A program made the position numbers and the translations under genes. Positions 23,057-48,809 of a DNA stretch of 64,000 nt are shown in pieces. The notes below the pieces were generated by a model. That model ran no database searches. It was not told the DNA's origin and saw nothing but the letters and a program-made list of their open reading frames with translations. Source of the DNA: an uncultured Acidobacteriaceae bacterium (GTDB lineage Bacteria; Acidobacteriota; Terriglobia; Terriglobales; Acidobacteriaceae); NCBI GenBank assembly GCA_964247595.1, contig CAXTUW010000016.1, forward strand, positions 614 to 64,613, written 5' to 3'. How positions within the stretch are numbered: the stretch's first letter is position 1; each line of letters begins with the position of its first letter.

Positions 23057-24688
23057 ATGGAGATGTCCCCCCATTGTACCGTTTCACCACCACACAGCCG
23101 ATTCCGTCTGCTTCCATTGCTTCCCCTGACCTTTGGCGTCTTGCTGGTCCATGGCTATCATCCCTGGGCCGAGGACGGCGGCCTGTATGTTGCGGGCATC
23201 GAACATCTGCTGAACCCTGCGCTGTTTCCCAAAGACACCGCCTTTGTTACAGAGCACCTCAGGTACTCGGTATTCGCTCCCCTGCTCGCAGCCGCGGTTC
23301 GCTTCACTCACCTGTCCCTCGCGGCTGTGTTGTTCTCGACCTATCTTCTAAGCATCGCGCTAATGCTCTTTGCAGCCCTGCGCCTGGCCGAGCGCTGCAT
23401 CGCTACGCGGGCGGGCCAGTGGATCGCCGTCGCCCTGCTTGCGGCCTGGTGGACGCTGCCCGTTGCTGGTACCTCTCTGCTGCTGATGGACCCCTATGTC
23501 ACGGCGCGGAGCCTGTCGACACCGCTTTCCCTGCTCGCGGTAGGCGCGGCGCTCGACTCCTGGCCTTGGTCTTGGTTCAGATCGGAACCCAAAACCACGA
23601 TCAACGTCCAGCGACAATCCCGTTCGCCGCAGCAGGAGGGCAGCGTCCCTTCTGCCCTCCTTTGCATTTTGGCGCTTACCGGGGCCGCGCTTTTTCACCC
23701 CTTGATGGCCGGCTATGCCGTGGGCTTGGTTCTGTTCCTTCGTTTGGAGCGCAGCCAATCGCCAGCACGCCTGTACGTGCTTCTAACAGCCGTGGTTTTG
23801 GTGGGCGCAGGGACCTTACAGGCAATCAGCCGGCCCGACTCCGCGCCTTCCGCAGCAGCTGCCTACTCTCGCTACTACTGGTTCCTATCGCAATGGCAAT
23901 GGTATGAGTGGCTCGGTTTACTCGGCCCCGTTCTGATCTTCGCTACTTTTTTGCTGTGGAAACCTGCTTCCTTGAATGACATCGTGATCACGGTGTGCCG
24001 TGCGGCCCTTCGCCTGGCAGCCCTGTCCGTACTCGTGGCGGTTTGCCTCTCGCACGAGCACTTTGGGTCGCATGTTGTTGCAAGCCTGCAGCCCCTGCGT
24101 GCGTTTCTTCTGCTGTATACCGTGATGATTCTGCTTCTCGGTGGAGCGCTCGCCGCCTGCGCCAGCAGGCCCGCACCTCAGGCGCGGCAACTATGGTTAG
24201 TGCGTGTGCTTGCAGCCGTGCCCATATTGTTCGTCGGTGCCATGGCGATCACGATGTATGGCGTGCAGCGTGCCGCCTTCCCCGCCTCCATCCATGGGGA
24301 GATCCCAGGGCGCGTCAACCCCAACGATTGGGTGCAGGCTTTCCTGTGGGCGCGGGCGCATACGCGCCAGGATGCGCTGTTTGCGCTCGATGCCCGCTAT
24401 GTGAACACAGAGGGCGAAGATGCGCAGACCTTCCGCGCCATTGCCGAGCGCAGCGCCATCCCGGATTTCTCAAAGGACGGCGGCGAGGCGGCCATCGCTC
24501 CGGCGCTCGCCCCCACATGGCTGCATGCATCAGCGGCCACTCGCCACTTGAGCGAACTTCGGGACCCGGAGCGCGATGCCCTGCTGCAGCCCTTTGGCGT
24601 GCAATGGATGGTGCTTCACGCCTCGGCTGCAACAGCGCACCCTTGCCCTTACCGCAACCCGACCGTCAAAGTTTGCATTCTGCTTTAG
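23057..24688 (+). CDS. Polytopic membrane protein of unknown function, GT-C-like topology
   Basis: Many hydrophobic segments, acidic motif GYHPWAEDGGLY after the first TM, soluble C-terminal domain (DALFALDARY...DFSKDGG). Confidence 0.7.
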   Translation: MEMSPHCTVSPPHSRFRLLPLLPLTFGVLLVHGYHPWAEDGGLYVAGIEHLLNPALFPKDTAFVTEHLRYSVFAPLLAAAVRFTHLSLAAVLFSTYLLSIALMLFAALRLAERCIATRAGQWIAVALLAAWWTLPVAGTSLLLMDPYVTARSLSTPLSLLAVGAALDSWPWSWFRSEPKTTINVQRQSRSPQQEGSVPSALLCILALTGAALFHPLMAGYAVGLVLFLRLERSQSPARLYVLLTAVVLVGAGTLQAISRPDSAPSAAAAYSRYYWFLSQWQWYEWLGLLGPVLIFATFLLWKPASLNDIVITVCRAALRLAALSVLVAVCLSHEHFGSHVVASLQPLRAFLLLYTVMILLLGGALAACASRPAPQARQLWLVRVLAAVPILFVGAMAITMYGVQRAAFPASIHGEIPGRVNPNDWVQAFLWARAHTRQDALFALDARYVNTEGEDAQTFRAIAERSAIPDFSKDGGEAAIAPALAPTWLHASAATRHLSELRDPERDALLQPFGVQWMVLHASAATAHPCPYRNPTVKVCILL

Positions 24689-24726: not shown

Positions 24727-27327
24727 TTATTCACAATGCTCCAATCGCTGCCGCGCGTGCCGGCGCAGCATGGAACGGAGCAGAGCGGCGTTGAGCATGC
24801 AAAGCACGGCCACGGCGAGAAAAAGCAACCACGGTGCCCTGGTCACAAGCGCGTCCAATTGCCTCCAATGCCTCGCTGCCGTGCTCGTGGCTGCTCCAGC
24901 GATTTGCCGTTCCCTCATCTCGAGCGGTTCCGCAACCTGTTCAGGCACAACAGCGGACGCGAGGGCATCCGATGGCGCTACGGCCGGCGCACGGCCACCC
25001 GCAACGAACGTGACTCCACGAGATTCTTCGGCCTGCGCAAGAGCCCGTACATTCCCGAATGAGCCAAGCCACGCAAATAGGAAAAGTAGTGGCACCACGG
25101 CTCGGTACCGTGTGCGCGAGCGCTGCCGGCACAGCTTCACGAGGCTGCGCACCGTGCCGGCAAAGCCATGAGCCGCAAGCTGCAGAATGCGCCAAAAACT
25201 TAACAGCGGGTGATCATCCTCCAGCGTATCGTTCCATCCCAGCCAGGTATCGGCACGGGAGTAAAGCACCATGGTCAGCGCCTCCTCCTCCTGCAACGTG
25301 AGCTCATCGAAGTGCGCGCGTAGAACGTTCCCTTCCACGCCGATGAGCGTGGCCGGCAGCGTCGCCTCACCATCCAGCACCGGAAAGGTTAGGCTCACTG
25401 GGTCGCCCGGGTTGGCTTCAACCAGCCGCTCCGCCCGAATCATCACACCGCCGCTGGAGACATCCGCGGTCGCTCCCTCCAGCTGTGTGCCGTCGGAGAA
25501 CGTAACGTTTGCCGGCACGGTCATCGAAACACGAACGGTCTCTCGCCGCTGCTGACTCTCGCGCGCCACGGCTGTGGCGACACTCAGGATGGTCAAGTTG
25601 AACACAGTCCACACGACGTTCATCCAGATCGCGCCGGGATGCCCGCCGTCATACATGTTCGCGGGTACGTTGAACAGCACGCCGAGAATGGGCGTTGACG
25701 TCATCACATGAGGGATTGCAAAGAAGCGTGGGATCGCGCAAAGCAGCCCCAGTAGATTGAGCGAAAGCAGAAGCAGAAATGGTGTGGCAATGCGCTTGTC
25801 GAAGAAGCTGCTACGGATCACGCCGCCTTTGGCGGTTACGCTGAAGCGGCCCATGCGTGGATGAATCAGCGCCAGCATGGTCGGAAGAAAGATGTAGGGC
25901 GCGAGCACGGTCTCATAGATCTCGTTCCAGAACGAGTGCCGGTGATGGCCCTGAATGCGCGCGTTGGCGATCTTTGCCAGAAGCAGGTGCGGCACGGCGT
26001 AGGCCACAATGGCCGCCCAGTACCCCGGCAGATTTGTGTGGCCAAACACCAGGTAAATCAAAGGTGCCGTAAGAAAAATCAAGCGTGGCAGCGCATAAAG
26101 AAAATGCGACATGGCGTTAAAGTAGCAAAGCCGCTGCGCCGCCGTGAGTCCGCGGGCGAGCAGTGGATTGTCAAGGCGCAGTACCTGCACCATGCCGCGC
26201 GCCCATCGGATACGCTGGCGCACGTGGCCGCTTAGCCGCTCGGTAGCCAGACCGGCCGCCTGTGGGATGTTGATGTACGCCGTGTTCCAGCCTTTCATCT
26301 GCATGCGCAGACTGGTGTGCGCGTCCTCAGTGACGGTCTCGATGGCGATCCCGCCGACCTCATCAAGAGCCGACCTTCGCATTACCGCGCATGAACCGCA
26401 GAAGAAGGTCGCGTTCCAGAAGTCGTTCCCATCCTGGATGACGCCGTAGAACAGCTCACCCTCATTCGGCACCACGCGAAACTGATCGAGATTGCGCTCA
26501 AACGGATCGGGCGAGTAGAGGTGATGGGGTGTTTGCAGCATGCCTAGCTTGGGATCTCGGCCGAACCAGCCCATCGTGATCTGCAGAAAGGAGCGCGTCG
26601 GCACATGATCCGAATCGAAGAGGGCTACAAACGGAGCATTCAGCTGCTCTAGAGCCTGGTTGATATTGCCGGCTTTGGCGAAACGGTTCGTTCTTCGCGT
26701 CACGTAGCCGATGCCCGCCTCCTCACAAAAGACGCGGAACTCCTCCCGGCGTCCATCATCGAGGATGTGCACATGCAAACGATCGGCTGGCCAGTCGATA
26801 TTCAACGCGGCCAGAGCGGTGTATTTGACGACGCTCAGCGGCTCATTGAAGGTCGGAATGAGGAGGTCGACCTCGGGCCAAAGATCCATATTTTCCGGCA
26901 ACGGGACCGGCGTTCTTTGCAGCGGCCACAGCGTCTGCAGGTAGCCCAGGAATAGGTTCAGAAAAGCATAGCCTTCGGCCAACAGCAGCAAACTGACGAA
27001 GAAGGCATCAAGGGCCGTCCAACCGGTGCCCGGAACACGAAAGAACCGATGCACGGCGGCAACTCGCCAGAGCCCATAGCGCAGCGTCGAAAAACAGGAC
27101 AGCAGCGTAAGGGTCAACGTAATCAGATAGGAATTGGAAGCGCGATCTGCGATGCCACCCAGCAAAAGCATGAGCGCCCCCACGATCGCCTGCTGTGGCC
27201 AGGGCAGTTGCAAACCCGCTGCGCCGCACAACAGACACAATCCCAAGATCAGCAGCAGCGCGCGCAGAAGCCGCAGCGAAGCGGGTCCCTTCATAGAGCG
27301 GTCGCGTCCTGGCGAGCGAAGGGTCAT
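24727..27327 (-). CDS. bcsA: Cellulose synthase catalytic subunit BcsA (GT2 plus PilZ) fused to a short BcsB-like tail
   Basis: IPTFNEP, LDDG, AKAGN, FDSDH, FFCGS, TED, QRIRW; PilZ QQRRETVR and DVSSGG. ATG 27327 overlaps the bcsQ stop (ATGA). Confidence 0.95.
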   Translation of the reverse strand: MTLRSPGRDRSMKGPASLRLLRALLLILGLCLLCGAAGLQLPWPQQAIVGALMLLLGGIADRASNSYLITLTLTLLSCFSTLRYGLWRVAAVHRFFRVPGTGWTALDAFFVSLLLLAEGYAFLNLFLGYLQTLWPLQRTPVPLPENMDLWPEVDLLIPTFNEPLSVVKYTALAALNIDWPADRLHVHILDDGRREEFRVFCEEAGIGYVTRRTNRFAKAGNINQALEQLNAPFVALFDSDHVPTRSFLQITMGWFGRDPKLGMLQTPHHLYSPDPFERNLDQFRVVPNEGELFYGVIQDGNDFWNATFFCGSCAVMRRSALDEVGGIAIETVTEDAHTSLRMQMKGWNTAYINIPQAAGLATERLSGHVRQRIRWARGMVQVLRLDNPLLARGLTAAQRLCYFNAMSHFLYALPRLIFLTAPLIYLVFGHTNLPGYWAAIVAYAVPHLLLAKIANARIQGHHRHSFWNEIYETVLAPYIFLPTMLALIHPRMGRFSVTAKGGVIRSSFFDKRIATPFLLLLSLNLLGLLCAIPRFFAIPHVMTSTPILGVLFNVPANMYDGGHPGAIWMNVVWTVFNLTILSVATAVARESQQRRETVRVSMTVPANVTFSDGTQLEGATADVSSGGVMIRAERLVEANPGDPVSLTFPVLDGEATLPATLIGVEGNVLRAHFDELTLQEEEALTMVLYSRADTWLGWNDTLEDDHPLLSFWRILQLAAHGFAGTVRSLVKLCRQRSRTRYRAVVPLLFLFAWLGSFGNVRALAQAEESRGVTFVAGGRAPAVAPSDALASAVVPEQVAEPLEMRERQIAGAATSTAARHWRQLDALVTRAPWLLFLAVAVLCMLNAALLRSMLRRHARQRLEHCE

Positions 27328-29231
27328 GGCTCGCTCCAATGAGCGCCTCGGGGCTGGCCGGGAGCCGCTTTGCTCATCGTGCGAGCCCACTGCGCCAGAC
27401 TGCCATAGTCGCTCGCCACACCGGCTTCAGGTGCATAGTCGATGACCGTCATTCCTTCCGCCAGAGCATCGGAGACGTCCTGAGAGCGACGGATAACAAA
27501 GGGTAAAAGCCGGTCGCCCAGCCTTTGCCGCATCACCTCACGCACATCCAGATGGAGTGCGAAAGACGTGTCGAATTGGGTCAAAATGTAATGTGGCTGC
27601 ACCGGCCGGCCCGCGCTGTCGGCCATCTCCGCAAAAAATCGTTCGGTCGAGCTCAAACTTAGGACTGTGTTCATGTCCGGGGTCACTGGCACGAGGACAG
27701 CGGCATCCAATCGCGCGAGTTGCCGCATGGCAGCCACGGCGGTAGGGCTCAGATCGATAACAAGATGCTCGAAGCGATCACGTGCGCTCGAGAGCTGCTC
27801 GAGCAATACGCTCTGCGGCCCATTGCCGGAAGCGTCTGGGCTTTGCAGGTCACAGCTGACCAGCGTGATCGGTGCATCGCTACTGCCGGCCGGAGGGGCA
27901 AAGGTGCGCACGGCACCTGGGCGCAGATCCTTGGCTCCGAAGTAGAACGGCAGGATGCCCTGGGTCGTCACGTCAGCCAGCAGCACACTTCCCCCCATGG
28001 CGGAAAGCGACCGGCCGAGGGAGGCCGTCAGGCTGGTTTTGCCGACACCGCCCGCCAGCGAGAAAACCGCCAGCATTGCCGACCCCACCTCCCGAGTCCG
28101 CGCCTGGATCGGTTCCATGTCGGGCGTGGTGGGATCGAACACCCCGCGCAGCGCGTACCAGCGTGATGCCACACGTTCGCGCGACTGCTGCAGGGTATCG
28201 CCGTGTGCTCCCTGGCTGACCCGGCGCGGTGATGCAATCGGCGATCCGACCCTTGTCTCATTCGCGGCTGCATCCGTAGATTCGTTCTCGATCCATGCGG
28301 GAAACAGTGGTCCGGATGCGGCATCCGCTGCAGGCTCCGCAGCGTTCCCTTGCTCGCCGATCCCTGCTGCCGTTCTGTCGGAGTTGGAGAGGGCCGAACC
28401 CGTCTCTGTATGCGTCTCTGCTGAGTCCTCAGGAGGAGATCCTGGCCGTGCCATTGTTTCTGCACGCAGGAGACGCGTCCGTGCGGCTTGCCCTTGCAGC
28501 GGTCCGAGCGCACTCAGGGGAGTGTCGGTTTTGCTCAGGGACTGCCCCTGCGGGACTACCGCGAGCGGGCTGCGCCGCTGCGGAAAGCGCTGCGGCTGCA
28601 TCTCGCCCTCAAGCCAGGGCTGGGCGCTCCCGGCCCGGGCCGGAGCGTCCCAAACATTCGCCGGGTAGAGAACAGCCCCAGAGGGCACCTGCGCAGGGGC
28701 TAATGAATCTGCTTGCAGGATGACGCCGGTGTAGCGCTGCGCCTGCCGCTCGGCTGAGAGATGGGCCTCGACTGCCTCCTGCGCCGCCCGTCGTGCCGCG
28801 AGAGCTGCGACGTGCTCTGCCAAGGCAAGGCGAGCTGCTTCTAAGCGTTCCTGTGCGGCCAGCCGGCCTAACTCCTCGGCATGTTGCAGGGCCTTTTCCC
28901 GCGCGGTCTGCTCGAAAGCGAGTTCGCCACGATGCTCCCCGGTTGCGCGCCGTATCTGAGCCTGGTGAAATCGTGCTGCCGCGGCGGCCTCCCTGGCGGC
29001 AAGCTCCGTCTCGCTTGCCGCTTTCTCGGCCCGTTCCTTTGCCTCTGCCTGTGTCTCGCGCTCGACCTGGGCTGCGCGTGCCCGCTGTTGCGCCCGGACC
29101 TCACGCCGTGCTGCGGAGAAGTCACGATAGCGGGCCCCTTTAAGATTGGCCCACGCGTACAGGGCTGCCACGTCCTCCGGAACCTCGAGCCGCGACGTCT
29201 CTGTCTCTACCCCCGTCACATGCCCTTTCAT
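27324..29231 (-). CDS. bcsQ: BcsQ/YhjQ ParA-MinD-like ATPase with long N-terminal extension carrying BcsR-like motifs
   Basis: FSLAGGVGKTSL Walker A, DALAEG, directly upstream of bcsA. N-terminal EDVAALYAWANL...YRDFS. Start placed at ATG 29231. Confidence 0.85.
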   Translation of the reverse strand: MKGHVTGVETETSRLEVPEDVAALYAWANLKGARYRDFSAARREVRAQQRARAAQVERETQAEAKERAEKAASETELAAREAAAAARFHQAQIRRATGEHRGELAFEQTAREKALQHAEELGRLAAQERLEAARLALAEHVAALAARRAAQEAVEAHLSAERQAQRYTGVILQADSLAPAQVPSGAVLYPANVWDAPARAGSAQPWLEGEMQPQRFPQRRSPLAVVPQGQSLSKTDTPLSALGPLQGQAARTRLLRAETMARPGSPPEDSAETHTETGSALSNSDRTAAGIGEQGNAAEPAADAASGPLFPAWIENESTDAAANETRVGSPIASPRRVSQGAHGDTLQQSRERVASRWYALRGVFDPTTPDMEPIQARTREVGSAMLAVFSLAGGVGKTSLTASLGRSLSAMGGSVLLADVTTQGILPFYFGAKDLRPGAVRTFAPPAGSSDAPITLVSCDLQSPDASGNGPQSVLLEQLSSARDRFEHLVIDLSPTAVAAMRQLARLDAAVLVPVTPDMNTVLSLSSTERFFAEMADSAGRPVQPHYILTQFDTSFALHLDVREVMRQRLGDRLLPFVIRRSQDVSDALAEGMTVIDYAPEAGVASDYGSLAQWARTMSKAAPGQPRGAHWSEP

Positions 29232-29479
29232 CCGCGCTCCTGCCCCCACTACCAGCCCAGGGTCACAGAAGACGAAAGCTCCCAGTCCTGCTGCCCGATC
29301 TTGCCCAAGGCTACTTGGCAGGCAGTGGAAGAACAATGCAACGGACGTAACAACCCAAAGGCGGAGGAGGCACCGGAGAACCCCTTTGGTAACACCCAAT
29401 TCGTACTTTTTGTCCCGTGAACGGACATCCTCGAACGTGGCATGTGGCCGGAGTTCGCTGTGCTACGCTATCGAAGAGC

Positions 29480-32465: not shown

Positions 32466-32611
32466 CATGCATAAGGCAGTAAGCTGACGGCTGACCGCCA
32501 CATACGACATCTGGGTCCGCTTCTTAATTCTCTGTAGTCCAAAAGCGACAGCCGGAAGGTATAGGGCGAATTGTATTGACGGGTCTTGCTATACCGAAGA
32601 CCATACCTTGC

Positions 32612-33705
32612 ATGTCCAGCAGCGATGCCCATCAGGTGCAAGAGTACATCACAAGAGAACTTCCAAAAGAGGCTACGCCCAGCCAGTTCTCGCTCCCCTG
32701 GCACCCGCTACTGGTGGGCATATCGGTATTGAGTCTAGTGTGCTTGCTCGTCATTTTTCGGCACCATCTTCCCTTTACCCTCGACCCTTCGTGCACCAGC
32801 TTCGCTCTATCTCGCCACTCGATCTTATGCTCGCGGTTCTAGCAATCCAGAGCAGTGTTGCTTTGCGGGCGCAAAGGTGGTCGATCCTACTTGCGCCTGT
32901 TCGGAGAGTTTCGGCTGGAAAGTTACTGGTTCCTCAATGGATCGGCTTCGCCGCGGTGGCCATCTTTGGGCGGCTGGCCGACCTGACACGTCCCTATCTC
33001 ATCGCGCGCCGCACCGCGACCCCCATCGCCACGCAGCTCGCCATCTACTCCATCGAGCGCGCATTCGATCTGGCGGCCGCGGCCACCCTATTCTCGGCAA
33101 CTCTAGCTTTGGCTCCGAAGCAGATGGCCCACCATGAGGCGTTCGCACGCGCGGGACTGGTTTCCCTTGCGGGCATGGTACTGCTGGCTGTGATTTCGCT
33201 GGCTGTCCGATTCACCGGAGAACGGCTTGCGCTCTTGTCGGAACGCCTCCTGCAGCCCCTGTCTGAAAAGTTGGCCCAATCCGTGTCGGTCCGCATTCTG
33301 GAGGGCCGGCAAGGCTTCCGTACAGTTGTCTCCTTCAAACAACTGCTTGTAACCATGCTGCTTTCCCTGGTGATTTGGATGGGAATCGCCGTTGGCTTCT
33401 GGGAGTCGGCTCGCTGCTTTCGCGCATCCCCGGAGTTATCGGTAATGAGCTTCGCCGGAATTATGCTTCTCGTGGCCACCAGCCTGGGAGCTTCGCTGCT
33501 GCAGTTGCCGGTCGTGGGCTGGTTTACCCAAATTGCGGTGCTGGCGGCAGCGTTCCACGGCTTCTATGGTGTTCCTCTAGAAACAGCATCGGCCTGTGCT
33601 ACAGTCACACTTTTCGTTATTTCACTCAGTCTTATACCCGGTGGCCTTATTGCCGCGCAAATGCAGGGCATCAACCTGCGTGAGGCCAGTCGCACTCAAA
33701 CCTAA
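32612..33705 (+). pseudogene. Second LPG-synthase TM / UPF0104 flippase-like gene with a frameshift near 32780
   Basis: First TM (LLVGISVLSLVCLLVIFRHHLPF) is in the 32576 frame, while the rest (FVHQLRSI...FGRLADLTRPYL...IERAFD...LPVVGWF) is in the 32608 frame. Could also be a sequencing error. Confidence 0.7.
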
Positions 33706-33727
33706 TCAGTTCTGCACAAGGATCTTG

Positions 33728-34807
33728 TTAGTCTGGCACCCGTCTCGAAGCTAGTCGGCGGTAGAGTGTCACATATTGGTGACCAATGGTTTCGGGGTCG
33801 CACACTTTTTGTAGGCTTTCAAAAAAACGTATGCCGTCCTGACGAATCATGAGCGGATTCGCCAGCCAACGGCGGAGGGCCTGATATAGGGCTTCGGCAT
33901 CACCGAACGGCAACGCGTTGGGGAGGCACAGCTCGCTTGGAAGCGTGTCTCTTGATCCATCCACATCGGTAACCAGGGTCGGGAGCGCTTTCGAAGCTGC
34001 TTCGACAACAGAGTTCGGAAATCCTTCACGCTCGCTGACCAGCACATTGAACGCGTAGTCGCCCATGCGCTCTGGGATGTTATCGGCAAATCCCCGCAAT
34101 CGCACGTTGGACTGTAGCCCGTTCGTGAGAATTAACGTTTCGAGTGAAGTCCGTAGAGGCCCTTCCCCATAGATATCAAGCTCAACATTGATTCCATCCT
34201 GCTTGAGCCGGGCCCAGGCTCGGATAAGACTTTCATGCGCCTTCACCGGTTCCAGGCGACCGACCGATAGAACACGCAACGGTCTGTTCCAAGCTGCGTC
34301 GAGACCAGCGACATCGAACTCATACGGGTTGTAGATCAAGCTCACATCGCGGGCTCTAGTGCACTGTTGGATGTAGCGCACCACCGATGGGCTCACGCCG
34401 GTTGCTGCATTGGGGCTGAACCAGCGAAACCACAATGCCGGAGCGAAGGTGAGATGACCTGTAAAGAGCACGGGAACCCCGGTGAAGGGGCGCAATAAAA
34501 AGGCGAGCACCGCGAGTCTTCTATGGTGAACGTGTAGCAAGTCGCATTGCGTACTCCGCAACCATCGCGCAAACACGAACATAGCGCCGAATAATCCTGG
34601 CCCCTTCGCCATAAGGCCAAAGGTTCGGCTATGGCTTTGCGGAACCAGCTGGGTCTCTTCGACGAGCATCGCTGCATCTTTCAGAGACGCACAACCGGCG
34701 ACGTACACTTCGATATTCTTGAAACTGTCCGTTTGCAGCAATCGCTGGATGACCTTCGTAATGCCGCTGCCGCGATAAAAGTTGTCGTTCAGAATGCAGA
34801 CCCGCAA
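33728..34807 (-). CDS. Glycosyltransferase family 4
   Basis: VGRLEPVKAHESL, IYGEGPLR, SEREGFPNSVVEA (EX7E), TDVDG. Confidence 0.92.
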   Translation of the reverse strand: MRVCILNDNFYRGSGITKVIQRLLQTDSFKNIEVYVAGCASLKDAAMLVEETQLVPQSHSRTFGLMAKGPGLFGAMFVFARWLRSTQCDLLHVHHRRLAVLAFLLRPFTGVPVLFTGHLTFAPALWFRWFSPNAATGVSPSVVRYIQQCTRARDVSLIYNPYEFDVAGLDAAWNRPLRVLSVGRLEPVKAHESLIRAWARLKQDGINVELDIYGEGPLRTSLETLILTNGLQSNVRLRGFADNIPERMGDYAFNVLVSEREGFPNSVVEAASKALPTLVTDVDGSRDTLPSELCLPNALPFGDAEALYQALRRWLANPLMIRQDGIRFFESLQKVCDPETIGHQYVTLYRRLASRRVPD

Positions 34808-34924
34808 GAGACTCCTTCAAGAAGACGAGATCGTGGTGCCCTTCTTGATTGATCTATCATAACGAAGTCATACGACGAAATACTTCTAAGTGGTGACAAG
34901 CTCCGTAACCGAGGATTCATTTCT

Positions 34925-36517
34925 GTGCCAATAACCCTGTCAAAAGTCGTGCTTGCCTGCTGTTTGCTGCCACTGCTGTTTCTTCTATCACCTGTGAGTC
35001 TGGCTTTTCCATCTGCTAAGGAACAACTCCCAGCGGCTGGCTCGCAGTCGGCGGATGTGGACAATGCACATGCAAGCCTTTGCCGAGACAATGCGGGTCG
35101 CGGCCTATTTGAGCCGCAGTGTTTTGTGAGTACGGGCAGCGGCGACAGCCTGATTAGCGAATGGGATGCAGCTTATAACGCGGCCGCCGGCTTTCTTACC
35201 AACCGTAACCTGAATCGCCTGGGTACCGGGGCCACGGTTCGTTGGGATGGGCAGTACAGGATCTGCAACGCACAGCAAGGCATTGTGCTACCGCAAAATG
35301 GCTCAGAACAGGGTGGTCCCGGCATAAATCTGGTCGGCGGCGGTCCTGGGGCGCAGCTATCGTTAAGCTGTCGGATCAATCGCAAAACCCTGCCGCCCGG
35401 CGCCGCGGCCGGCAGTCCTATATCGAACGCCGCGATCTGGATGCCGGTCCAGGCTTCGCCACGCTACACGATGTACAACTGGCACGATTTCACGTTGTAT
35501 GCCAACGGCCAGAGTGCGGGCTGCATGGATATGGCCGGGCTGATCCATGTGTCACAATTTACGAATATCGTGCTGGGAGGAGCCGGCGGAGATGGAACTC
35601 CCATGTCGAACTGCATGCGCTGGGGTAATTCGAAGTATGAGCAAGCTACAGCTAATCAAGTCGAGTTGCACAACATATCCATTACACCCGGCGGGAATGG
35701 AGGCGGATCTGATTTTGTGGCGAGCACTATGGTAAGCGGCGGCATTCCTATTGTTCACGTTATCAATGGGGGTCATGACTATAGTCGCAATGTGTATTTA
35801 TATCTGGTCGGCCCTCCAAGCGTCATTGATCCTCAAACCGGTGTGACGGCACCATGCACCACCATGGGATCCATCAAGGAAACTGTTACCTCGGGCAGCA
35901 TTTCCGCCCCTGTACTGCACGGCTTTTCAGGCTGCAGCACAGGGACAATGGTGCGCGCGTTCGACCCCGTATTCCCCGTGAACTATGGGGTTTGGTTCGA
36001 TTCGTTTACAGACAGTCAATACATTCAGCTCAATCCGCAGACCGGTCGATTGGCTGCTGTCTATGCTGGATCGAGGACCGGTAACAATCATTATCAGGCA
36101 GTGCACACATGCTGTTTCATGCCCACAGGTTTTGTCGAGCTGGGTCAAGGGGATTCATTTGTGGCTTTCTATGCCGATGGAGTCGGGCAACGGGCGATGT
36201 CTTTTGGACGCGGTGCCTCAGCAAGCCTGCAACAGTCAAAATTGTATTGGAATGCCACGGCGAAAATGACCTTCGCGCAAGCAGGCGGCTATTCCTTCGG
36301 TGAAGGGGTAGGACCAGTGACGATTTCGGGTGGGACGTGCAATGTCACAGGGCTGCAGAACAACGGTGGGTACGCGCATATCGTGTCGCAGCTCGGAGCT
36401 AACATCTTCCCGTCAAATCTGGTTCTCGTAGCGGACGCGGATTGCAGTACGAATCAACAGGTCACAAACCTGCATGTATCGCCTTGGAAGGCAATAACCC
36501 ATTCTCATAGGAGATAG
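34925..36517 (+). CDS. Secreted hypothetical protein, possible parallel beta-helix
   Basis: 530-aa ORF with signal peptide; Asn/Gly/Ser-rich alternating beta-strand pattern; no family motif recognised with certainty. Confidence 0.7.
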   Translation: MPITLSKVVLACCLLPLLFLLSPVSLAFPSAKEQLPAAGSQSADVDNAHASLCRDNAGRGLFEPQCFVSTGSGDSLISEWDAAYNAAAGFLTNRNLNRLGTGATVRWDGQYRICNAQQGIVLPQNGSEQGGPGINLVGGGPGAQLSLSCRINRKTLPPGAAAGSPISNAAIWMPVQASPRYTMYNWHDFTLYANGQSAGCMDMAGLIHVSQFTNIVLGGAGGDGTPMSNCMRWGNSKYEQATANQVELHNISITPGGNGGGSDFVASTMVSGGIPIVHVINGGHDYSRNVYLYLVGPPSVIDPQTGVTAPCTTMGSIKETVTSGSISAPVLHGFSGCSTGTMVRAFDPVFPVNYGVWFDSFTDSQYIQLNPQTGRLAAVYAGSRTGNNHYQAVHTCCFMPTGFVELGQGDSFVAFYADGVGQRAMSFGRGASASLQQSKLYWNATAKMTFAQAGGYSFGEGVGPVTISGGTCNVTGLQNNGGYAHIVSQLGANIFPSNLVLVADADCSTNQQVTNLHVSPWKAITHSHRR

Positions 36518-36587
36518 TTTTCTTTCCTTATCGAGAAGTGGCTATCGACTGCGTGCGGTCTCGCGGGAGAAGTGAAATCATCAGCCT

Positions 36588-37574
36588 TTAGAACAGTTTT
36601 GAGATGTAACTTCCATTTCGATCAGAATTTGTATATGCTTTTCTCGTAACGTTTCTGAGCAAAGGTCTCAATTGCAACAAACTCATTAGGAAGAAGAACC
36701 ATGAAGTCGCTGTGGGCGTTCCTATGACGCGGAACTCACGCAGCAGCGTTCGCAGCATGGGTAGTGAGAAACCCTCCTCTGCCCTCGCTCGATCTAAAAT
36801 GTAGATTGCTACAAAGAAGGAGTAGGTCTCCCGACTGAAATCCGCTCGTCTCCTTTGCAGCCATTCAAGACTCGACGTCCAACGTGTCCGCGCGCTGATG
36901 CTGCCGGCGGGGTTATGTACCTGATATTGAACAAGAGCCTCCTGCACAGCAACGAGGCGCACTCCACCTGCTTCCAGATCCAGAAGCCAATCCCAGTCCT
37001 GGTGCTGCCGCAAATGGTGATTCATGGGTATTTCCAGCATCAATTTTGTTGGAAGAAACATGCAGGAAGTTTGTAAGAACGGACGTCGTGCTGGCCAGTT
37101 TCTGGCAAACAGGTAATCGGACCAGCGCTCACCCGGTTTAGGAAAGCGTCTCGGCCATTTCTCGCGTCGGCCTTCCCACTCGACAAGCGCTGACGAAATG
37201 ATGACGAATCGATTGTCAAGCTGCCTGCTTGCGAGACTAAGGTCGGAAACAAGCTTCGTGGGTAGAAACAGATCGTCATCGTCCAGCAAAGCAATATATT
37301 GTCCCCTTGCCTGCGAGGCACCGAAATTTCTTGCCGCCGAAGCACCTTGGGGAGGGTTCTGCGTCAATACTCGAATTCTCGTGTCCGACAGTTCTAAGAT
37401 GGCCGCCTTGGTCACCTCATCCACACCGTCCTGTACAACGATGATTTCCAGTGCCGCAATGGCCTGCCTTTGAACGCTTTCTATAGCGGCGAACACAGAA
37501 GGACGGCCCGTCGTTGGGATAATGACACTGACCGCAGTAATCTGTTTTTGGCCCAAAGTCTTGCCCCTGCTCAT
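36588..37574 (-). CDS. Glycosyltransferase family 2
   Basis: VSVIIPTTGR, IIVVQDG, GASAARNFG, IALLDDDD, HQDWDW; start placed at ATG 37574. Confidence 0.92.
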   Translation of the reverse strand: MSRGKTLGQKQITAVSVIIPTTGRPSVFAAIESVQRQAIAALEIIVVQDGVDEVTKAAILELSDTRIRVLTQNPPQGASAARNFGASQARGQYIALLDDDDLFLPTKLVSDLSLASRQLDNRFVIISSALVEWEGRREKWPRRFPKPGERWSDYLFARNWPARRPFLQTSCMFLPTKLMLEIPMNHHLRQHQDWDWLLDLEAGGVRLVAVQEALVQYQVHNPAGSISARTRWTSSLEWLQRRRADFSRETYSFFVAIYILDRARAEEGFSLPMLRTLLREFRVIGTPTATSWFFFLMSLLQLRPLLRNVTRKAYTNSDRNGSYISKLF

Positions 37575-37575
37575 A

Positions 37576-38823
37576 TTACAAAAGCTGCTCCCCCTGTGTC
37601 TGCTGAAGGCTCTCTTTATGTTTGTGTTTTGAAGATACCGCCAACGCCGTAACCATAGAAACCGCCAGGCATGTCTCTGTGGCCACACTCGACCAAGCTG
37701 CTCCGTGCCAGGAATACTTGGGGATAAGGTATACGTTTAGCGATATGTTGAACACTGCCGCCCCAAGCTGAACTGTCGTTCTGGACCACTGGGCTCCGAG
37801 AGCCGTTAACGCGTTTCCTGCGCCGTAGTGCACACAGCGGATCAAGGGTATAAAGCATAAATATCGCAGCACCTGTCCAGCGGCACCGTACTCTTTGCCA
37901 AGCAGTGTCGTAGCGGTACCATGAAAGATAAGAATGACCCAACCGCATACGAACGAGTAGAGGACCGAAGGAGCCAACACGCGCAGCATGACGGCCCGAA
38001 CACCCTGGATGCCGTTTGCACGAGCAGTAAAGAATCGCGGCAGGGCCGCGGTGTTTAAAGCTCGCAAGGGAGCGGTCATCACCTCGATCAAACGATAAGC
38101 GGCACCATAAAATCCGGCTTCGGCGACGAACCCGTCCGCGACTAGGAAAGTTTTATCAATGTCGTTGTAGATGTAGAAAGAAGCTCCAGAAACAGCATAA
38201 GACAAGCCTTCCCAGAGTGAACCTTTCTTGAAATAGCTGTCTTTAGCCCTTCCCAAGCTATGCCGTACGGCAAGCAGCGCTACCCCACAGACACATACCG
38301 ACGCAGCGGCATACCAAAGCCCCCAGCCCAGAGCGCTAAGTCTCGATTTCTGGAGGCTTATTTGTACAGCAGCGCAGGAAACGGCAACGAATTTAGCCAA
38401 GTTGGGCAGGATGCTAATCTGGCTTGCCGCGCGGAACCTGGCGTTCGCCTGAAAGGCTTGGGATGCAAGCTCAACTGTCTTATTACAGACCAAGTCGGAG
38501 AGCACGATGATCGGTAAAAGACGAAACAATGCCGCCTGATGAAGGAGACGCCACCCAACAAGCAGCGCAACCAGTGCCGTCACGATGCAGCCCAAAAACG
38601 CCGTACGCAATGTAGGTCCCCACGCATTTAGGAAAGTCTCAGATGTCTGAGACAGCTGCCGAATCAGCACCGTGCCCTGTCCAAGCGTAGCGAACTGGGC
38701 AAGAATAGCGACAAAGGCGCTCGCCCCAATGAAAAGCCCATATTGATATGTGTCTAGGATCCTCACCAGGATCAGGAAAAAGGCGGTCTGGAGCATGATG
38801 GCCGTGATCTGCCCCGCAATCAT
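37576..38823 (-). CDS. Wzx-type polysaccharide flippase
   Basis: About 12 TM; YNDIDKTFL, AGFYGAAYRL, NISLNVYLIPKYSWHGAAWSS. The frame stays open upstream to a CTG behind GGAG (about 38859). Confidence 0.88.
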   Translation of the reverse strand: MIAGQITAIMLQTAFFLILVRILDTYQYGLFIGASAFVAILAQFATLGQGTVLIRQLSQTSETFLNAWGPTLRTAFLGCIVTALVALLVGWRLLHQAALFRLLPIIVLSDLVCNKTVELASQAFQANARFRAASQISILPNLAKFVAVSCAAVQISLQKSRLSALGWGLWYAAASVCVCGVALLAVRHSLGRAKDSYFKKGSLWEGLSYAVSGASFYIYNDIDKTFLVADGFVAEAGFYGAAYRLIEVMTAPLRALNTAALPRFFTARANGIQGVRAVMLRVLAPSVLYSFVCGWVILIFHGTATTLLGKEYGAAGQVLRYLCFIPLIRCVHYGAGNALTALGAQWSRTTVQLGAAVFNISLNVYLIPKYSWHGAAWSSVATETCLAVSMVTALAVSSKHKHKESLQQTQGEQLL

Positions 38824-38973
38824 CCAAAGCGCATCTTTCTTTAAAGATTGCTGTGCCAGTATTGTTCTCCAAACCCGTGCATTGTGACAGGGTTATACGA
38901 TCCATAGTGTAATTCTGTTCAGGCATGGGGAACGCTGCATCATTACCTCTAAAGCCCAGATGCAGTGCTGTAC

Positions 38974-40086
38974 TTAGGAAGTTCTCCTGGACCGAAGCGC
39001 TTTATTGTATGTGTTGAAGGTACTTTGAGCGATGCCTTCCCATGCCAGCTGTATCTTTCCATACTCGTAGGCCTGTCTGCGAATATGGCCTTGCCTGTCG
39101 GGCTCTTGCAGAAGAGCGAGGAGCGAGGCAGCCAATGATTGTGCGTCTCTTGGAGGTACCAGGACCCCGGTCTCTCCCTCGACGATCAACTCCGCCAATC
39201 CACCTACGCGAGAGGCGACTACAACCGTTCCCAAGGTAAACCCAATGGCAGATACACCGCTCTGTGAAGCCTCGATGTAGGGCAGAACGACAATGCTGCT
39301 CTTCTGGAACAGTCCGGCAACTTGCTGTTCCGGAATAAATTCGTCCATCACTTCCACGTCCCGCAATGAGGCAAGCAGGCCGGCATTTGCTTGAAGATCC
39401 CCACCACGGCCAGCAATGACCAACTTTACCTCAGGCAGATCGCGTTTCAGGATTGCAAATGCTTGCAAAAGATAACGAAGACCTTTATACGCCCAGATCC
39501 TGCCAAAAAATAGGAGTGTAAAGGGCTCACGCTGAACGGGGGACACATCAGCCCGCTCAGCTAGGGTGAGATAGAGCGACCCTAACTCCCCGTGAGGGAT
39601 GACGTCGATTCGCTCCGGTGCGATCCGGTAACGTGCGGACAACTGGCTACGCATGCCGTCCGTATGGGCAATCAGTCGCTGCGAGCGCCAAAAGCTGATT
39701 GCCTTTGTATACTGCAAGCCGGGAGCGGCATGTCCATCTCCAGGATGAGGCACAACGTCGTGGACGGTCGTTACCAGAACAGGAAACCGGTTAAACAGGC
39801 TGTAGAGATCGTAACCATAGTCAAAAGTTTCCTGAACGTGCACAACCTCAGGCTTGCTCTCGCGAATAAGTTCCAATGCATGCTGCATGGCCCATAGATT
39901 GCCGATTTCACGTCTTCGTAAAGGCTTGGCGAAGCTCCACAATTGTACGGTCGGCAGGGCAAGCGTTCGGCAAGTTGCCGAAAGTCCTTCAGGATGAATT
40001 ACTGTAACTTCGGCGATGTCAGCCAACGCATTGGCCAACCCCATCACATATTCCGGAAAACCCATGTGAAATAACGTGACACGCAA
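38974..40086 (-). CDS. Glycosyltransferase family 4
   Basis: TVHDVVPH, FFGRIWAYKGL, LPYIEASQSGV, SRVGGLAE. Confidence 0.93.
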   Translation of the reverse strand: MRVTLFHMGFPEYVMGLANALADIAEVTVIHPEGLSATCRTLALPTVQLWSFAKPLRRREIGNLWAMQHALELIRESKPEVVHVQETFDYGYDLYSLFNRFPVLVTTVHDVVPHPGDGHAAPGLQYTKAISFWRSQRLIAHTDGMRSQLSARYRIAPERIDVIPHGELGSLYLTLAERADVSPVQREPFTLLFFGRIWAYKGLRYLLQAFAILKRDLPEVKLVIAGRGGDLQANAGLLASLRDVEVMDEFIPEQQVAGLFQKSSIVVLPYIEASQSGVSAIGFTLGTVVVASRVGGLAELIVEGETGVLVPPRDAQSLAASLLALLQEPDRQGHIRRQAYEYGKIQLAWEGIAQSTFNTYNKALRSRRTS

Positions 40087-40169
40087 AACTTATCTTCTCC
40101 AAGATGGGGCATTTCGGATTGCTACTGCTTGCCTAGAACGATTGAACTGCTCTTGCTGTATTGAATCGT

Positions 40170-41645
40170 CTACGGACCGACGCTGCGCAACAGGTGATCC
40201 GCATAGAGAATACCGCCATACAGCCCACCGGCACCCACTACCGTAACCGCTTTGGTAACGAATGTAGACCGAAGTTCATGCGCCATGACGCCTCTTCCAA
40301 TAACAAACGATTTGAACACCACCGAAAAGATCAGGTTCGTAGCGATTCCAGCATAAAGCACGCCGGCTATGCTGTACTGGTGCACAAAGAAAAGACCCAG
40401 GACAACATAGGTACAGGCTTCCAAAATAGGTAGGTAATAGCCTGTGCTGTAGGTTCCGGTCGTGTCGATCCAGATGTCGTCGTTAATTTTTATGATGTTG
40501 AGGAGCAAGAGTGTTGCAAATAGGCCTACGACCCTCTGCGAAACACTGCCGCTATGGTAGAGCAGTGCAATCGCCGGCTTGGCAAGAAAGAAAAATCCAA
40601 GGCTGCAGGCGGTTGCGGCAGCCGCGATCGAAAGTGACGTAGAACGGTAGAAATGAGGGTAAGCTGCCTTGCCAATCGTCAGCTGACGCCGGGCAGTTCT
40701 GGCGGTCATCGTACCCCCTGCCGTTAGCGAAAAACTGAGCAGCCCAGCATACATGTATTGGTATTGGGCGTAGTATCCCAGCAACGCCAGGGAGGAAGAC
40801 AACAAAAGGATGATGTAGTCCGACTGATAGAAGAAAAGATAACCGATTCGATGAAAGAGAACAAACTTGGCCCGCTCTCGAATTGCTTTTTGGGCGTCGG
40901 CCAGTTCGGCAACAGACAAGTCTGTGTCCGTCAAGGTACGTATCACCAGCGCACGCTGCACAAGCAATTCTAGGATGCTGATCAGCGCCGTCCCCAGCGG
41001 CAAGCCGATAAAGCTGCGAAGATCTTGGGCAAGCAGAACGCCGAGGCAAACCTTCAATACAAACCCGCAACCCAGGATCATATTGCGCAACGGAACACGA
41101 TCCGATGCATTGAAGTGGCTCTGGAAAGGCAGGGCCAAGAAGGTGGAAAATGCGGAGATACAGGTTAAAAGGATCGAGGAGGCCAGAACTGCGACAGGGA
41201 TCTGTGACTTTAGCCAGAGCGACAAGAGCGCACTCGCGACACACGACGCCGGTCCCAACCAGTACATAATGCTACGCACGTTGCGCTGCAGCGCCTGGAT
41301 GAGGGCTTTTACGCGTCTTGTATCGTCACTATGAACAGGCTCGAACAGCAAAGACGTGGTTGCAGCCGCGAGACCGAGCTCCGCAAGCAAGATATAAAAA
41401 GTAATTTGGTTAAGGAGGACAATGAGTCCACCATAGCTGCTGCCGAAGCGATGCTCCGTAAAACGGAGTTGATAGATGACCACGATCGCCCTAGAAGCAA
41501 AAAGAAAAGCTGAGGAACCGATACTCCAGAAGAGAATGTTGATTCGGGATGGCGATTTGCGTTGAGGTTCAGGCATTGATTTCTTTAGGCGATCTGTTGA
41601 AAAAATCGCAGTGTAAGTTCCTGGTGTATAGACATTTCCTTTCAT
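40170..41645 (-). CDS. Second Wzx-like flippase (different subtype)
   Basis: LLNQITFYILLAELGLAAATTSLLF, FHRIG....YQSDYIILL, LGYYAQY; multi-TM. Start placed at ATG 41645 behind GGGAG. Confidence 0.8.
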   Translation of the reverse strand: MKGNVYTPGTYTAIFSTDRLKKSMPEPQRKSPSRINILFWSIGSSAFLFASRAIVVIYQLRFTEHRFGSSYGGLIVLLNQITFYILLAELGLAAATTSLLFEPVHSDDTRRVKALIQALQRNVRSIMYWLGPASCVASALLSLWLKSQIPVAVLASSILLTCISAFSTFLALPFQSHFNASDRVPLRNMILGCGFVLKVCLGVLLAQDLRSFIGLPLGTALISILELLVQRALVIRTLTDTDLSVAELADAQKAIRERAKFVLFHRIGYLFFYQSDYIILLLSSSLALLGYYAQYQYMYAGLLSFSLTAGGTMTARTARRQLTIGKAAYPHFYRSTSLSIAAAATACSLGFFFLAKPAIALLYHSGSVSQRVVGLFATLLLLNIIKINDDIWIDTTGTYSTGYYLPILEACTYVVLGLFFVHQYSIAGVLYAGIATNLIFSVVFKSFVIGRGVMAHELRSTFVTKAVTVVGAGGLYGGILYADHLLRSVGP

Positions 41646-41656
41646 CGAGCTCCCTT

Positions 41657-42964
41657 TCAATACGCTCGGTTCATGGCGGAACCTGTCGGGAACGCAGCTC
41701 GTTCGAGCGAGCTCAGAGCGCTCTTCGAGACCGTGCTGGCCTTTACCGCGCGATTGCATTCGAGGGCGAGCGATGTGGAAGTCGCGACGAATAGAAGGTA
41801 GCTTAGGCCTTCCCTCTCCACGAGAGAGGCTTCCGCGGTGGCGTGAATAAGAAAGTACAAAAGAAAGGCGAAGGGCCAAAAGCCATCGGCTTTTCTCAAG
41901 TTGCGCAGATACATAGCCGCATTGCTTCCGGCTTGTAACACGCAGATGAGAAGCAGGCCCATACCGATGATTCCAAGACCGAGCAGCCCTTCGAGATAAC
42001 CATTATGCGCATGGGGGACAAGCCACTGTACCCGAGCCACAATTTGCAGAGACTCCCCTTTCAAGCCTTGCCAAAAAGCATCATAGCCGTAACCCAACAG
42101 GGGTCTTCGACCAATACTGGCCAGGGCGCCGGCCCAGATCTCGGCGCGGCCAGTAAGGGTGCTGTCCTTCCCAAGCAGGTCCAAAACTGAACCGGAGAAG
42201 CGAGAGAGTGCAAGGCCGACAAGCGAGACTAAGGCAGCTCCCAGAACCGCGAGAGGCACGACTTGTTTTTGGGTAAAGCGTACAATCGCTAAGCTGGGAA
42301 GTAACAATAAGGTGATTGTCAATGCTAGAAGCGAGGTTCCTGAACGGGACGCCAACAACAAGCTTGCTGCCAATATCACGGCACCTACTTGTGCGAGACC
42401 CCACCTGACGCGAAACCTGTAGGTTAACGCTACCAACAGGAAAATTCCCATGTATTCGCCAAACCGGTTCTTGTGCTCAGTGATCCCCCGAAATGCTCCG
42501 TTGTGGTAAGTGTCGATGGCATAGTTGGGTGCGATACAAAGCAGAACCAGACTCGCTGCCACCATGAACAGGAAAAATTGCAAGAGCAGTGTTTGTAAAT
42601 TGTGAACCGTAAGCCTGCCGCCCAGATAAATGCCAAAGATGGTTGTGCTGAGCAGAACAAGGCTGCGCCGCAACGTGGTTCCAGGATCCACACTCCATGC
42701 CGTCGATACGATCGCCAGCATAGCCACCATAAGAAACGGCCAGGCAACACGTGCGGCCAATGCGGTTTGCCTATACCTGAACACAACCAACGTGGCCGCA
42801 CCGGCATAGATCAGAGTCTCGCTTATGCGACCACCGAGAGTTGAGATCGAGCCTTCGGCAACACTTCGCTCGTGTAGACCCGCACCGATAAACAATACCG
42901 TGAGCACTCCGATGACCATCAGGAGAAATGAAAAAGTAACGATTCGCTCGTATAATTTGTACAA
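41657..42964 (-). CDS. Wzy/O-antigen ligase family polymerase (ExoQ-like)
   Basis: FRGITEHKNRFG, SRSGTS, LGKDSTLTGRAEIW, PLLGYGY..FW, HAHNGYLE. Confidence 0.9.
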   Translation of the reverse strand: MYKLYERIVTFSFLLMVIGVLTVLFIGAGLHERSVAEGSISTLGGRISETLIYAGAATLVVFRYRQTALAARVAWPFLMVAMLAIVSTAWSVDPGTTLRRSLVLLSTTIFGIYLGGRLTVHNLQTLLLQFFLFMVAASLVLLCIAPNYAIDTYHNGAFRGITEHKNRFGEYMGIFLLVALTYRFRVRWGLAQVGAVILAASLLLASRSGTSLLALTITLLLLPSLAIVRFTQKQVVPLAVLGAALVSLVGLALSRFSGSVLDLLGKDSTLTGRAEIWAGALASIGRRPLLGYGYDAFWQGLKGESLQIVARVQWLVPHAHNGYLEGLLGLGIIGMGLLLICVLQAGSNAAMYLRNLRKADGFWPFAFLLYFLIHATAEASLVEREGLSYLLFVATSTSLALECNRAVKASTVSKSALSSLERAAFPTGSAMNRAY

Positions 42965-43016
42965 GACTTCATGCTTCCTTCCCCTGATCTGGTGGTGTTT
43001 CGATGGTGGCGACGTC

Positions 43017-44303: not shown

Positions 44304-44350
44304 CTTGCTGTTCCTTACGAGTGCATGCGACAGAATAAGTCAACGAGATG

Positions 44351-47595: not shown

Positions 47596-47703
47596 TCAGG
47601 TACGGAGTTCCTAAGGGAGTCAGCGGGGCAGCATGCGCACACCCCCAATGAAGATGGGATCTTTGATTGGCTTTTCGCAGAGCCCATTCGCAAATTTTTA
47701 ATT

Positions 47704-47732
47704 TTTGTATTTTGAGAGTTTACACGCTTCAA
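47704..47732 (-). promoter_or_regulatory. Putative sigma70-like promoter upstream of wzc
   Basis: TTGAAG-17 bp-TACAAA on the minus strand in an AT-rich intergenic gap. Confidence 0.3.
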
Positions 47733-47882
47733 AGATCGAACGTTCGGGGTGAACCCTTCCTTGCCCTTCACTGCCTCCAGTGCAAATTTCCCACAAGGAG
47801 TCCATCTTCTGCGATCTCAGCGATAGACGACATAGCTCTTTTAGGGCAGAGGCACCGGAACAGACTTGAAAGCTCGAGGGAC

Positions 47883-48773: not shown

Positions 48774-48809
48774 AGTTCATCTCCAGATTTTTTCAACTGC
48801 TAATGCCTA

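Follow-up and report, generated by a model that had tools for sequence, protein, structure and literature searches.

The stretch of DNA analysed here (the window: 64,000 nucleotides, positions 614 to 64,613 of contig CAXTUW010000016.1 in assembly GCA_964247595.1 of an uncultured Acidobacteriaceae bacterium) carries on its reverse strand a gene for the catalytic subunit of bacterial cellulose synthase, BcsA, whose open reading frame (ORF) runs on into a short C-terminal tail resembling the membrane anchor of the partner subunit, BcsB (Table 1). An earlier note, written from the sequence alone, had described positions 24727-25110 (residues 761-887 and the stop codon) as a BcsA fused to a mini-BcsB, and each of the elements it listed is found there. 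The gene follows a bcsQ-like ATPase gene, to which it is translationally coupled by an ATGA at 27324-27327 that joins the bcsQ stop to the bcsA ATG; the same 4-bp overlap is found in relatives. This ATG is probably the true start of the protein, the database gene call for which has 866 amino acids (aa), and the GTG at 27390, from which residues are numbered below, would be 21 codons too early. Downstream, a convergent gene for a 543-aa protein stops 38 bp from the bcsA stop, so the operon comprises bcsQ and bcsA only and ends where the earlier note had placed its end.

Table 1. Features of the bcsQ-bcsA locus and its surroundings, in window positions; residues are those of the respective protein, for the fusion counted from GTG 27390.
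Feature	Position	Strand	Residues	Remarks
bcsA::mini-bcsB ORF	24727..27390	(-)		887 aa from GTG 27390; 866 aa from probable ATG 27327 (M22)
GT2 catalytic domain	25993..26877	(-)	172-466	PF13641, PF00535, PF13632; carries DDG, DxD, TED, QxxRW, FFCGS
PilZ c-di-GMP-binding domain	25267..25551	(-)	614-708	PF07238, E 4e-12
BcsA C-terminal interface helix	25123..25209	(-)	728-756	AlphaFold2 helix, pLDDT ~75
Junction transmembrane helix, former BcsB signal peptide	25036..25101	(-)	764-785	
Ala-rich linker	24892..25035	(-)	786-833	presumably periplasmic, disordered
Amphipathic stretch, remnant of BcsB amphipathic helix	24835..24891	(-)	834-852	before the anchor
BcsB C-terminal transmembrane anchor	24778..24834	(-)	853-871	
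Basic cytoplasmic tail RSMLRRHARQRLEHCE	24730..24777	(-)	872-887	
bcsQ-like ATPase gene	27324..29399	(-)	442-674	PF06564 E 4.5e-18, TIGR03371 E 1e-40 (residues are those matched)
543-aa polytopic membrane protein	23057-24688	(+)		weak DUF6798 match only
Wzx/Wzy-type exopolysaccharide cluster	32608-48800			

Judged by its sequence, the protein has every feature expected of a BcsA. It matches the CelA model TIGR03030 over residues 38-751 with 783 bits (cut-off 699), which identifies it as a uridine diphosphate (UDP)-forming cellulose synthase catalytic subunit, and by the same kind of evidence it is not of the enterobacterial subtype, since with the E. coli-type model NF008558 it reaches 826 bits, short of the cut-off of 992. 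The catalytic motifs are all intact (DDG 211-213, DSD 259-261, FFCGS 329-333, TED 354-356 and QRIRW 392-396), as are the gating loop (FxVTxK; here FSVTAKGG 516-523) and the cyclic di-GMP (c-di-GMP)-binding motifs of the PilZ domain, RETVR 616-620 (RxxxR) and DVSSGG 643-648 (DxSxxG). The GT2 motifs and the gating loop sit in invariant alignment columns, and R616, R620, D643, S645 and G648 of the PilZ domain are likewise invariant among the aligned proteins; overall, at each of the 173 alignment columns in which the other 35 sequences do not vary, the window protein has the shared residue, so that the integrity of the catalytic and c-di-GMP motifs claimed in the earlier note holds throughout. 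The interface-helix segment is alignable both to congener BcsAB proteins and to the E. coli BcsA model. An AlphaFold2 model of the 887-aa protein is BcsA-like (mean predicted local distance difference test score, pLDDT, 70.5), and its top Foldseek matches are the BcsA proteins of E. coli and R. sphaeroides (E 7e-49 to 3e-31).

Past the BcsA core, a basic stretch (CRQRSRTRYR) is followed by the signal-like junction segment AVVPLLFLFAWLGSFGNVRALA, which is moderately hydrophobic, is modelled as a helix over residues 765-779 and leads into an AXA-like site, A-L-A|Q, at residues 783-786. The linker behind it was modelled with a pLDDT below 50 (residues 778-838), and its first ~30 aa can still be aligned to the N-terminus of mature BcsB. 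Counted from residue 786 to residue 850 it has the length of about 65 aa that had been noted earlier; with 15 Ala and 4 Pro in these 65 residues, the description as Ala/Pro-rich does not stand, and it is better called Ala-rich. The amphipathic stretch has a hydrophobic moment of 0.54 over 18 residues and 0.63 over 11 residues, where the amphipathic helix of E. coli BcsB reaches 0.56 over its best 11 residues; the stretch aligns with the WxR...PW segment of full-length forms and with E. coli BcsB, and AlphaFold2 places a low-confidence helix at residues 825-851. The anchor helix PWLLFLAVAVLCMLNAALL is modelled with a pLDDT of 86-91, and in the basic tail behind it the motif LRRxARxRL is kept in 36 of 36 aligned proteins, R882 being invariant. 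An N-out/C-in topology of the anchor would be consistent with the positive-inside rule. The tail thus carries the C-terminal amphipathic helix and single transmembrane (TM) anchor by which a BcsB is recognised, the amphipathic part being only partly conserved.

That this tail derives from BcsB follows from a comparison with other members of the genus Granulicella, where bcsQ-bcsAB-bcsZ-bcsC operons encode BcsB as part of BcsA-BcsB fusions, with open frames of 1450-1600 aa. Fused bcsAB genes in such loci of Acidobacteriales (Acidisarcina, Granulicella, Terriglobus) have already been described (PMC9693552). In BLASTP alignments, residues 25-815 of the window protein match residues 3-800 of one such fusion (G021) with 67% identity, and residues 844-887 match the extreme C-termini of fusions (1489-1529 of 1532 and 1497-1540 of 1540) with 54-59% identity (E 2e-10). 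The BcsB domain PF03170, which spans residues 816-1433 of the G021 fusion, falls in the gap between the two alignments, so that about 690 aa, corresponding to the entire periplasmic BcsB, are missing in frame. In agreement with this, Pfam finds no PF03170 match in the window protein: domains D1-D4, i.e. two carbohydrate-binding jellyrolls and two flavodoxin-like modules, are missing, and by the Pfam definition the protein is not a BcsB. A full fusion, in turn, can be aligned to E. coli BcsB through residue 776 of 779, hhalign relates the tails of short forms to those of full forms with 99.1% probability (E 1.3e-18), and a joint profile, made from the 70 C-terminal residues of 36 proteins of short and full type, retrieves from the PDB BcsB chains only, where it aligns to the C-terminus (residues 713-776 of 779 in E. 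coli BcsB, E 5e-8). What the earlier note could propose only from the pattern of the tail, its identity as BcsB, is therefore established by homology, as far as sequence comparison goes and transitively: the link runs through the full-length congeners, because the BcsB entries of the PDB are not recovered when the profile is restricted to the tails of short forms. The window protein is a single ORF, is colinear with the fusions at the junction and is nested within the Granulicella BcsAB clade. By these sequence relations, it is a descendant of a Granulicella BcsAB fusion whose periplasmic BcsB domains were lost in frame.

The reduced architecture is shared by a whole lineage. Among 101 species genomes of the genus, bcsA is present in 53, about 20 of them with full fusions, and intact short forms of 880-1082 aa were found in 17 species. 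The closest to the window protein (G253) has 880 aa, 67% identity and the same synteny; 12 others, of 980-1082 aa, have a low-complexity linker of ~200 aa, made of A, P, K, T and S, in place of BcsB, and three (G242, G259, G011) retain a fragment of BcsB domain D1. In a tree of the BcsA core, the 17 short forms make up one clade (support of 99 in the Shimodaira-Hasegawa-like approximate likelihood ratio test, SH-aLRT) nested within the full-length Granulicella fusions, so that one change of state suffices to explain them. The protein database holds about 43 further clusters of 828-1062 aa that do not match PF03170, including a complete 828-aa ORF with the same neighbours and a linker of only 14 residues. 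Across these relatives the linker varies from 14 to ~250 aa, and the helix-plus-anchor module, FY..V.P.W.R......YPW-TM-LRRRARERLLGHI, is conserved throughout and nearly invariant. With the missing BcsB domains on one side of the anchor and the missing bcsZ-bcsC on the other, no fewer than two deletions are required, and the ~45-aa anchor piece between them was retained every time. Two of the short forms, G011 (L007 6479-9541) and G259 (L019 7063-10059), are divergent, lie in a different genomic context and keep the D1 piece; in G011, Asn replaces the first Asp of the DxD motif, and to judge from their sequences both proteins may be inactive or repurposed. A further database protein, P0068 (767 aa), is a BcsA homologue that ends a few residues past the junction helix, before any anchor, and could be either a truncated gene call or a form reduced still further.

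The genes that normally accompany bcsA are missing together with the BcsB domains. The earlier note had remarked that the locus has no bcsZ or bcsC, and this holds for the genome too: in this assembly (3.93 Mb, 63 contigs, 97.9% complete) we found no match to PF03170 (BcsB), PF05420 (BcsC C-terminus) or PF01270 (GH8, BcsZ), and tblastn searches of it returned no match when the queries were BcsB, BcsZ and BcsC from three congeners. Of the 21 genomes that carry a short-type locus, intact in 17 and frameshifted in 4, none has the BcsC C-terminal domain and 20 have no full BcsB, while BcsC and full BcsB were both present in 5 of 5 full-form controls. In the one exception, G242, a second, full-length BcsAB that is 47% identical to the window protein lies on another contig (G242:C303:616-2439) of a metagenome-assembled genome in 480 contigs, and is either of the "outcast paralog" type (PMC9693552) or a contamination. 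With BcsC and BcsZ absent, the locus is, by gene content, not a Bcs system of types I-III. Two of the three observations that the earlier note had named as fatal to its proposal, a tail that does not align to the BcsB C-terminus and a full, co-expressed bcsB, bcsC or bcsZ elsewhere in the genome, were thus looked for, and these comparisons returned neither.

Pairwise Nei-Gojobori estimates of the ratio of nonsynonymous to synonymous substitution rates (dN/dS) show purifying selection on the core and the anchor across the whole short clade. For the BcsA core they lie at 0.05-0.2 in the short clade and 0.01-0.23 among full fusions, and for the last 45 residues, which include the anchor, at 0.05-0.3 in most pairs of the short clade and 0.00-0.42 among full fusions. 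The linker gives 0.22-0.8 in the short clade; full fusions have no counterpart to it, and their full BcsB domains give 0.02-0.32. When the window gene is paired with that of G253, the core gives 0.15, the linker 0.82 and the anchor 0.20. The earlier note had left the choice between a naturally minimal synthase and an in-frame deletion from a BcsAB fusion, and these do not appear to be alternatives: with descent from a fusion and purifying selection in the whole clade, both would hold. Its observation is confirmed and its interpretation supported.

We therefore favour, with a probability of roughly 0.7, the view that the gene encodes an active, c-di-GMP-gated minimal cellulose synthase that carries the BcsB anchor in cis and whose product has no dedicated exit through the outer membrane; activity, product and product location alike are inferred. 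The four periplasmic BcsB domains (~690 aa) have been removed in frame from a Granulicella BcsA-BcsB fusion and bcsZ and bcsC lost as well, reducing the system to bcsQ and bcsA::B-tail. In the resulting protein, the junction helix would carry the chain out of the cytoplasm and the anchor would return it, leaving the basic tail inside, and the anchor would fill in cis the groove between TM1-3 of BcsA, as the BcsB tail does in solved complexes. The protein would then act as a processive beta-1,4-glucan synthase and inner-membrane translocase under the control of c-di-GMP and would release its glucan to the periplasm, where it may stay, periplasmic or cell-bound, or from which it may leave by a route not encoded at the locus; a dedicated exit is not expected because the periplasmic guide of BcsB, BcsZ and the BcsC porin are all absent. 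More speculatively, a signal peptidase cut at ALA|QA could yield a BcsA and a 102-aa mini-BcsB.

Several observations weigh against this reading. The amphipathic helix is only partly kept in the window protein, where homology starts at about W842. G253 is its only close partner, and the dS of 1.2 between them is near saturation. The bcs locus is, by its distribution, labile in the lineage: 48 of the 101 genomes of the genus are without bcsA, and the closest relatives by argS (86-88% identity; 85-89% for the four loci given here) hold only scraps beside the 543-aa gene (L026 7800-9100, L027 7950-8320, L033 7970-8340, L092 7660-8400), three of them bcsQ fragments without bcsA and one an N-terminal BcsC fragment only. 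In E. coli and other bacteria, BcsZ and BcsC are of importance in vivo, so that this reading does not account for an exit route of the polymer.

Alternatively, the gene could be a relic on its way to loss, with the export genes deleted, the synthase useless, the ORF still open but no polymer made, and the tail merely not yet decayed. The frequent loss of the locus in the genus and the scraps in the closest relatives would fit this, as would the early-branching G011 and G259, which have long branches and depart from the common residue at 26 and 10 otherwise invariant positions, respectively, and the four short-type loci that are frameshifted (G226, G232, G228, G231). Moreover, Granulicella aggregans M8UP14 and Candidatus Sulfotelmatomonas gaucii have short proteins that a published analysis set aside, calling them "incomplete and, presumably, pseudogenes" (PMC9693552). 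However, the core evolves under the same constraint as in full forms over a dS of 0.4-1.7 in many pairs, the linker is near-neutral where the anchor is not, intact copies persist in 17 species and some 43 metagenomic clusters, and the window protein has lost none of its 173 invariant positions; in three of the four frameshifted loci the flanking housekeeping or neighbour genes (argS, bcsQ) are frameshifted too, which makes an assembly error likely there. A relic therefore seems unlikely to us. We also think it unlikely that an active synthase has its glucan brought to the cell surface by an unlinked exporter of the OPX/Wza or TolC type in place of BcsC. BcsB-less cyanobacterial synthases have been proposed to use HlyD-like and TolC partners (PMC12430437), and an exopolysaccharide (EPS) cluster of the Wzx/Wzy type with a Wzc-like kinase lies 6-20 kb from bcsA in the window; yet none of the genomes examined has a HlyD-, TolC- or porin-like gene linked to its short-form locus, and neither the EPS cluster nor a GH10 gene is conserved beside other short forms. 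More specifically, no HlyD-like, BcsW or TolC gene adjoins bcsA in the window or at 17 related loci, the rest of the genome not having been searched for these.

A fused frame produced by misassembly, the third point that the earlier note had named, with BcsA attached to a bcsB end in a collapsed or chimeric contig, is conceivable in a draft of 63 contigs and nonetheless very improbable, given that the independent assembly G253 has the same architecture and synteny, that 15 more species and an unrelated farmland-soil contig agree with it, and that the frame is continuous, with a linker of diverged sequence and no sharp junction. Hardly more credible is a tail unrelated to BcsB, by which BcsA would have been extended at its C-terminus with a generic TM helix and basic residues. 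It could be argued from the failure of the short-form-only profile to match any PDB entry up to E 10 and from a search with residues 745-887 alone among 5.8 billion proteins, which returned only the window's own protein. A scan of genome contigs with back-translated tail patterns confirmed no relative. Against it stand the colinearity with the last 41-44 residues of congener BcsAB proteins at 54-59% identity, the hhalign result, the nesting of the short forms among fusions, and intermediates that retain a BcsB D1 fragment between junction and anchor, as in G011 (PF03170 positions 2-137).

The minimal synthase that we favour resembles several known systems without coinciding with any. With the acidobacterial BcsAB fusions it shares a BcsA of 64-70% identity, the junction helix, the C-terminal anchor, the upstream bcsQ with its 4-bp overlap (bcsQ precedes bcsA at every short and full locus) and the argS-LPG_synthase_TM-543 aa gene neighbourhood, the argS-LPG_synthase_TM flank adjoining the operon in G021 as well; it differs from them in missing ~690 aa, including all of PF03170, and in the loss of bcsZ and bcsC from locus and genome. 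From the BcsA-BcsB complexes of E. coli and of R. sphaeroides (PDB 9b8v, 9fnn, 4p00, 4hg6), whose BcsA fold its model shares and, in E. coli, whose BcsB residues 713-776 are homologous to its tail, it is set apart as a single polypeptide without D1-D4 and without a BcsB crown to guide the nascent chain. The BcsB anchor fits the groove between BcsA TM1-3 and the periplasmic domains of BcsB are thought to guide the chain toward BcsC (PMC8892547); polymerisation cannot do without the amphipathic helix and the TM anchor at its C-terminus (PMC8892547, citing Omadjela 2013 and Morgan 2013). The part retained in the window protein is thus the part reported to be needed in vitro in engineered truncations of R. 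sphaeroides and E. coli BcsB (Omadjela et al. 2013, via PMC8892547), whereas the form described here is natural, evolutionarily stable, fused in cis and has an amphipathic helix that is only partly homologous. Cyanobacterial type IV BcsA/XcsA proteins are also PilZ-bearing BcsAs without a canonical periplasmic BcsB, but they are devoid of any BcsB anchor and are linked to HlyD-like, TolC or BcsW genes (PMC12430437); the window protein has kept the anchor, has no such partner linked to it and originates from a recent reduction of a type-I/II-like bcsQABZC operon. A precedent for cellulose that is not secreted exists in Synechococcus PCC 7002, which is reported to have a cellulose layer between peptidoglycan and outer membrane (PMC12430437).

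In the open-access literature we found no paper that treats a BcsA with a BcsB tail alone as a functional class. More tentatively, and at odds that we put a little short of even, bcsQ and bcsA::B-tail may constitute a distinct and stable type of bacterial cellulose system, made of one polypeptide gated by c-di-GMP, in which the membrane tail is the only BcsB function kept in vivo and a periplasmic or cell-bound glucan serves a non-biofilm role in peat and tundra Granulicella. If so, the periplasmic domains of BcsB would serve the hand-over of the chain to BcsC and not synthesis, and the glucan could form, for example, an envelope layer or protect against desiccation, acid or freezing. BcsB is usually regarded as a co-catalytic partner that bacterial cellulose synthase cannot do without, and to our knowledge the sufficiency of its tail for polymerisation is known only from in vitro truncations. 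Evolution would here have repeated that truncation experiment, discarding the periplasmic domains, BcsZ and BcsC and keeping the tail module. Should the protein be active, it would separate in vivo two roles of BcsB, the completion of the BcsA channel and the guidance of the chain to BcsC, would give structural studies and engineering a compact cellulose synthase in one chain (~830-870 aa), and would suggest that abundant bacteria of peat and tundra make a glucan that they do not secrete; it would also correct the habit of discarding such genes as pseudogenes when bcs genes are counted in genomes and metagenomes.

Among the neighbours, the BcsQ-like ATPase has an Ala/Glu/Arg-rich N-terminal extension of ~440 aa, which occurs across Acidobacteriaceae in very variable length (BcsQ of 430-890 aa). 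The 543-aa polytopic membrane protein encoded convergently to bcsA is very strongly conserved, with the motifs HGYHPxAEDGGLY, MDPYVTARSxSTPLSL and GEDAQTFRAIAxRSxxPDFSKDGGEAAI. It was considered as a substitute for BcsZ or BcsC, or as a specific partner, and rejected: in Granulicella, Edaphobacter and Tunturibacter, argS, LPG_synthase_TM and the gene for the 543-aa protein make up a conserved backbone independent of bcs, being present whether bcs is absent, full-length or short. Its AlphaFold2 model is poor (pLDDT 62), and Foldseek gives non-significant hints to the GT-C enzymes DPY19, AftA and AftD. The Wzx/Wzy-type EPS cluster is separate from the bcs operon and comprises a second LPG_synthase_TM, GT4 and GT2 transferases, a Wzx-like flippase, a Wzy_C polymerase and the Wzc-like chain-length/tyrosine-kinase protein, together with several ORFs that have no Pfam match.

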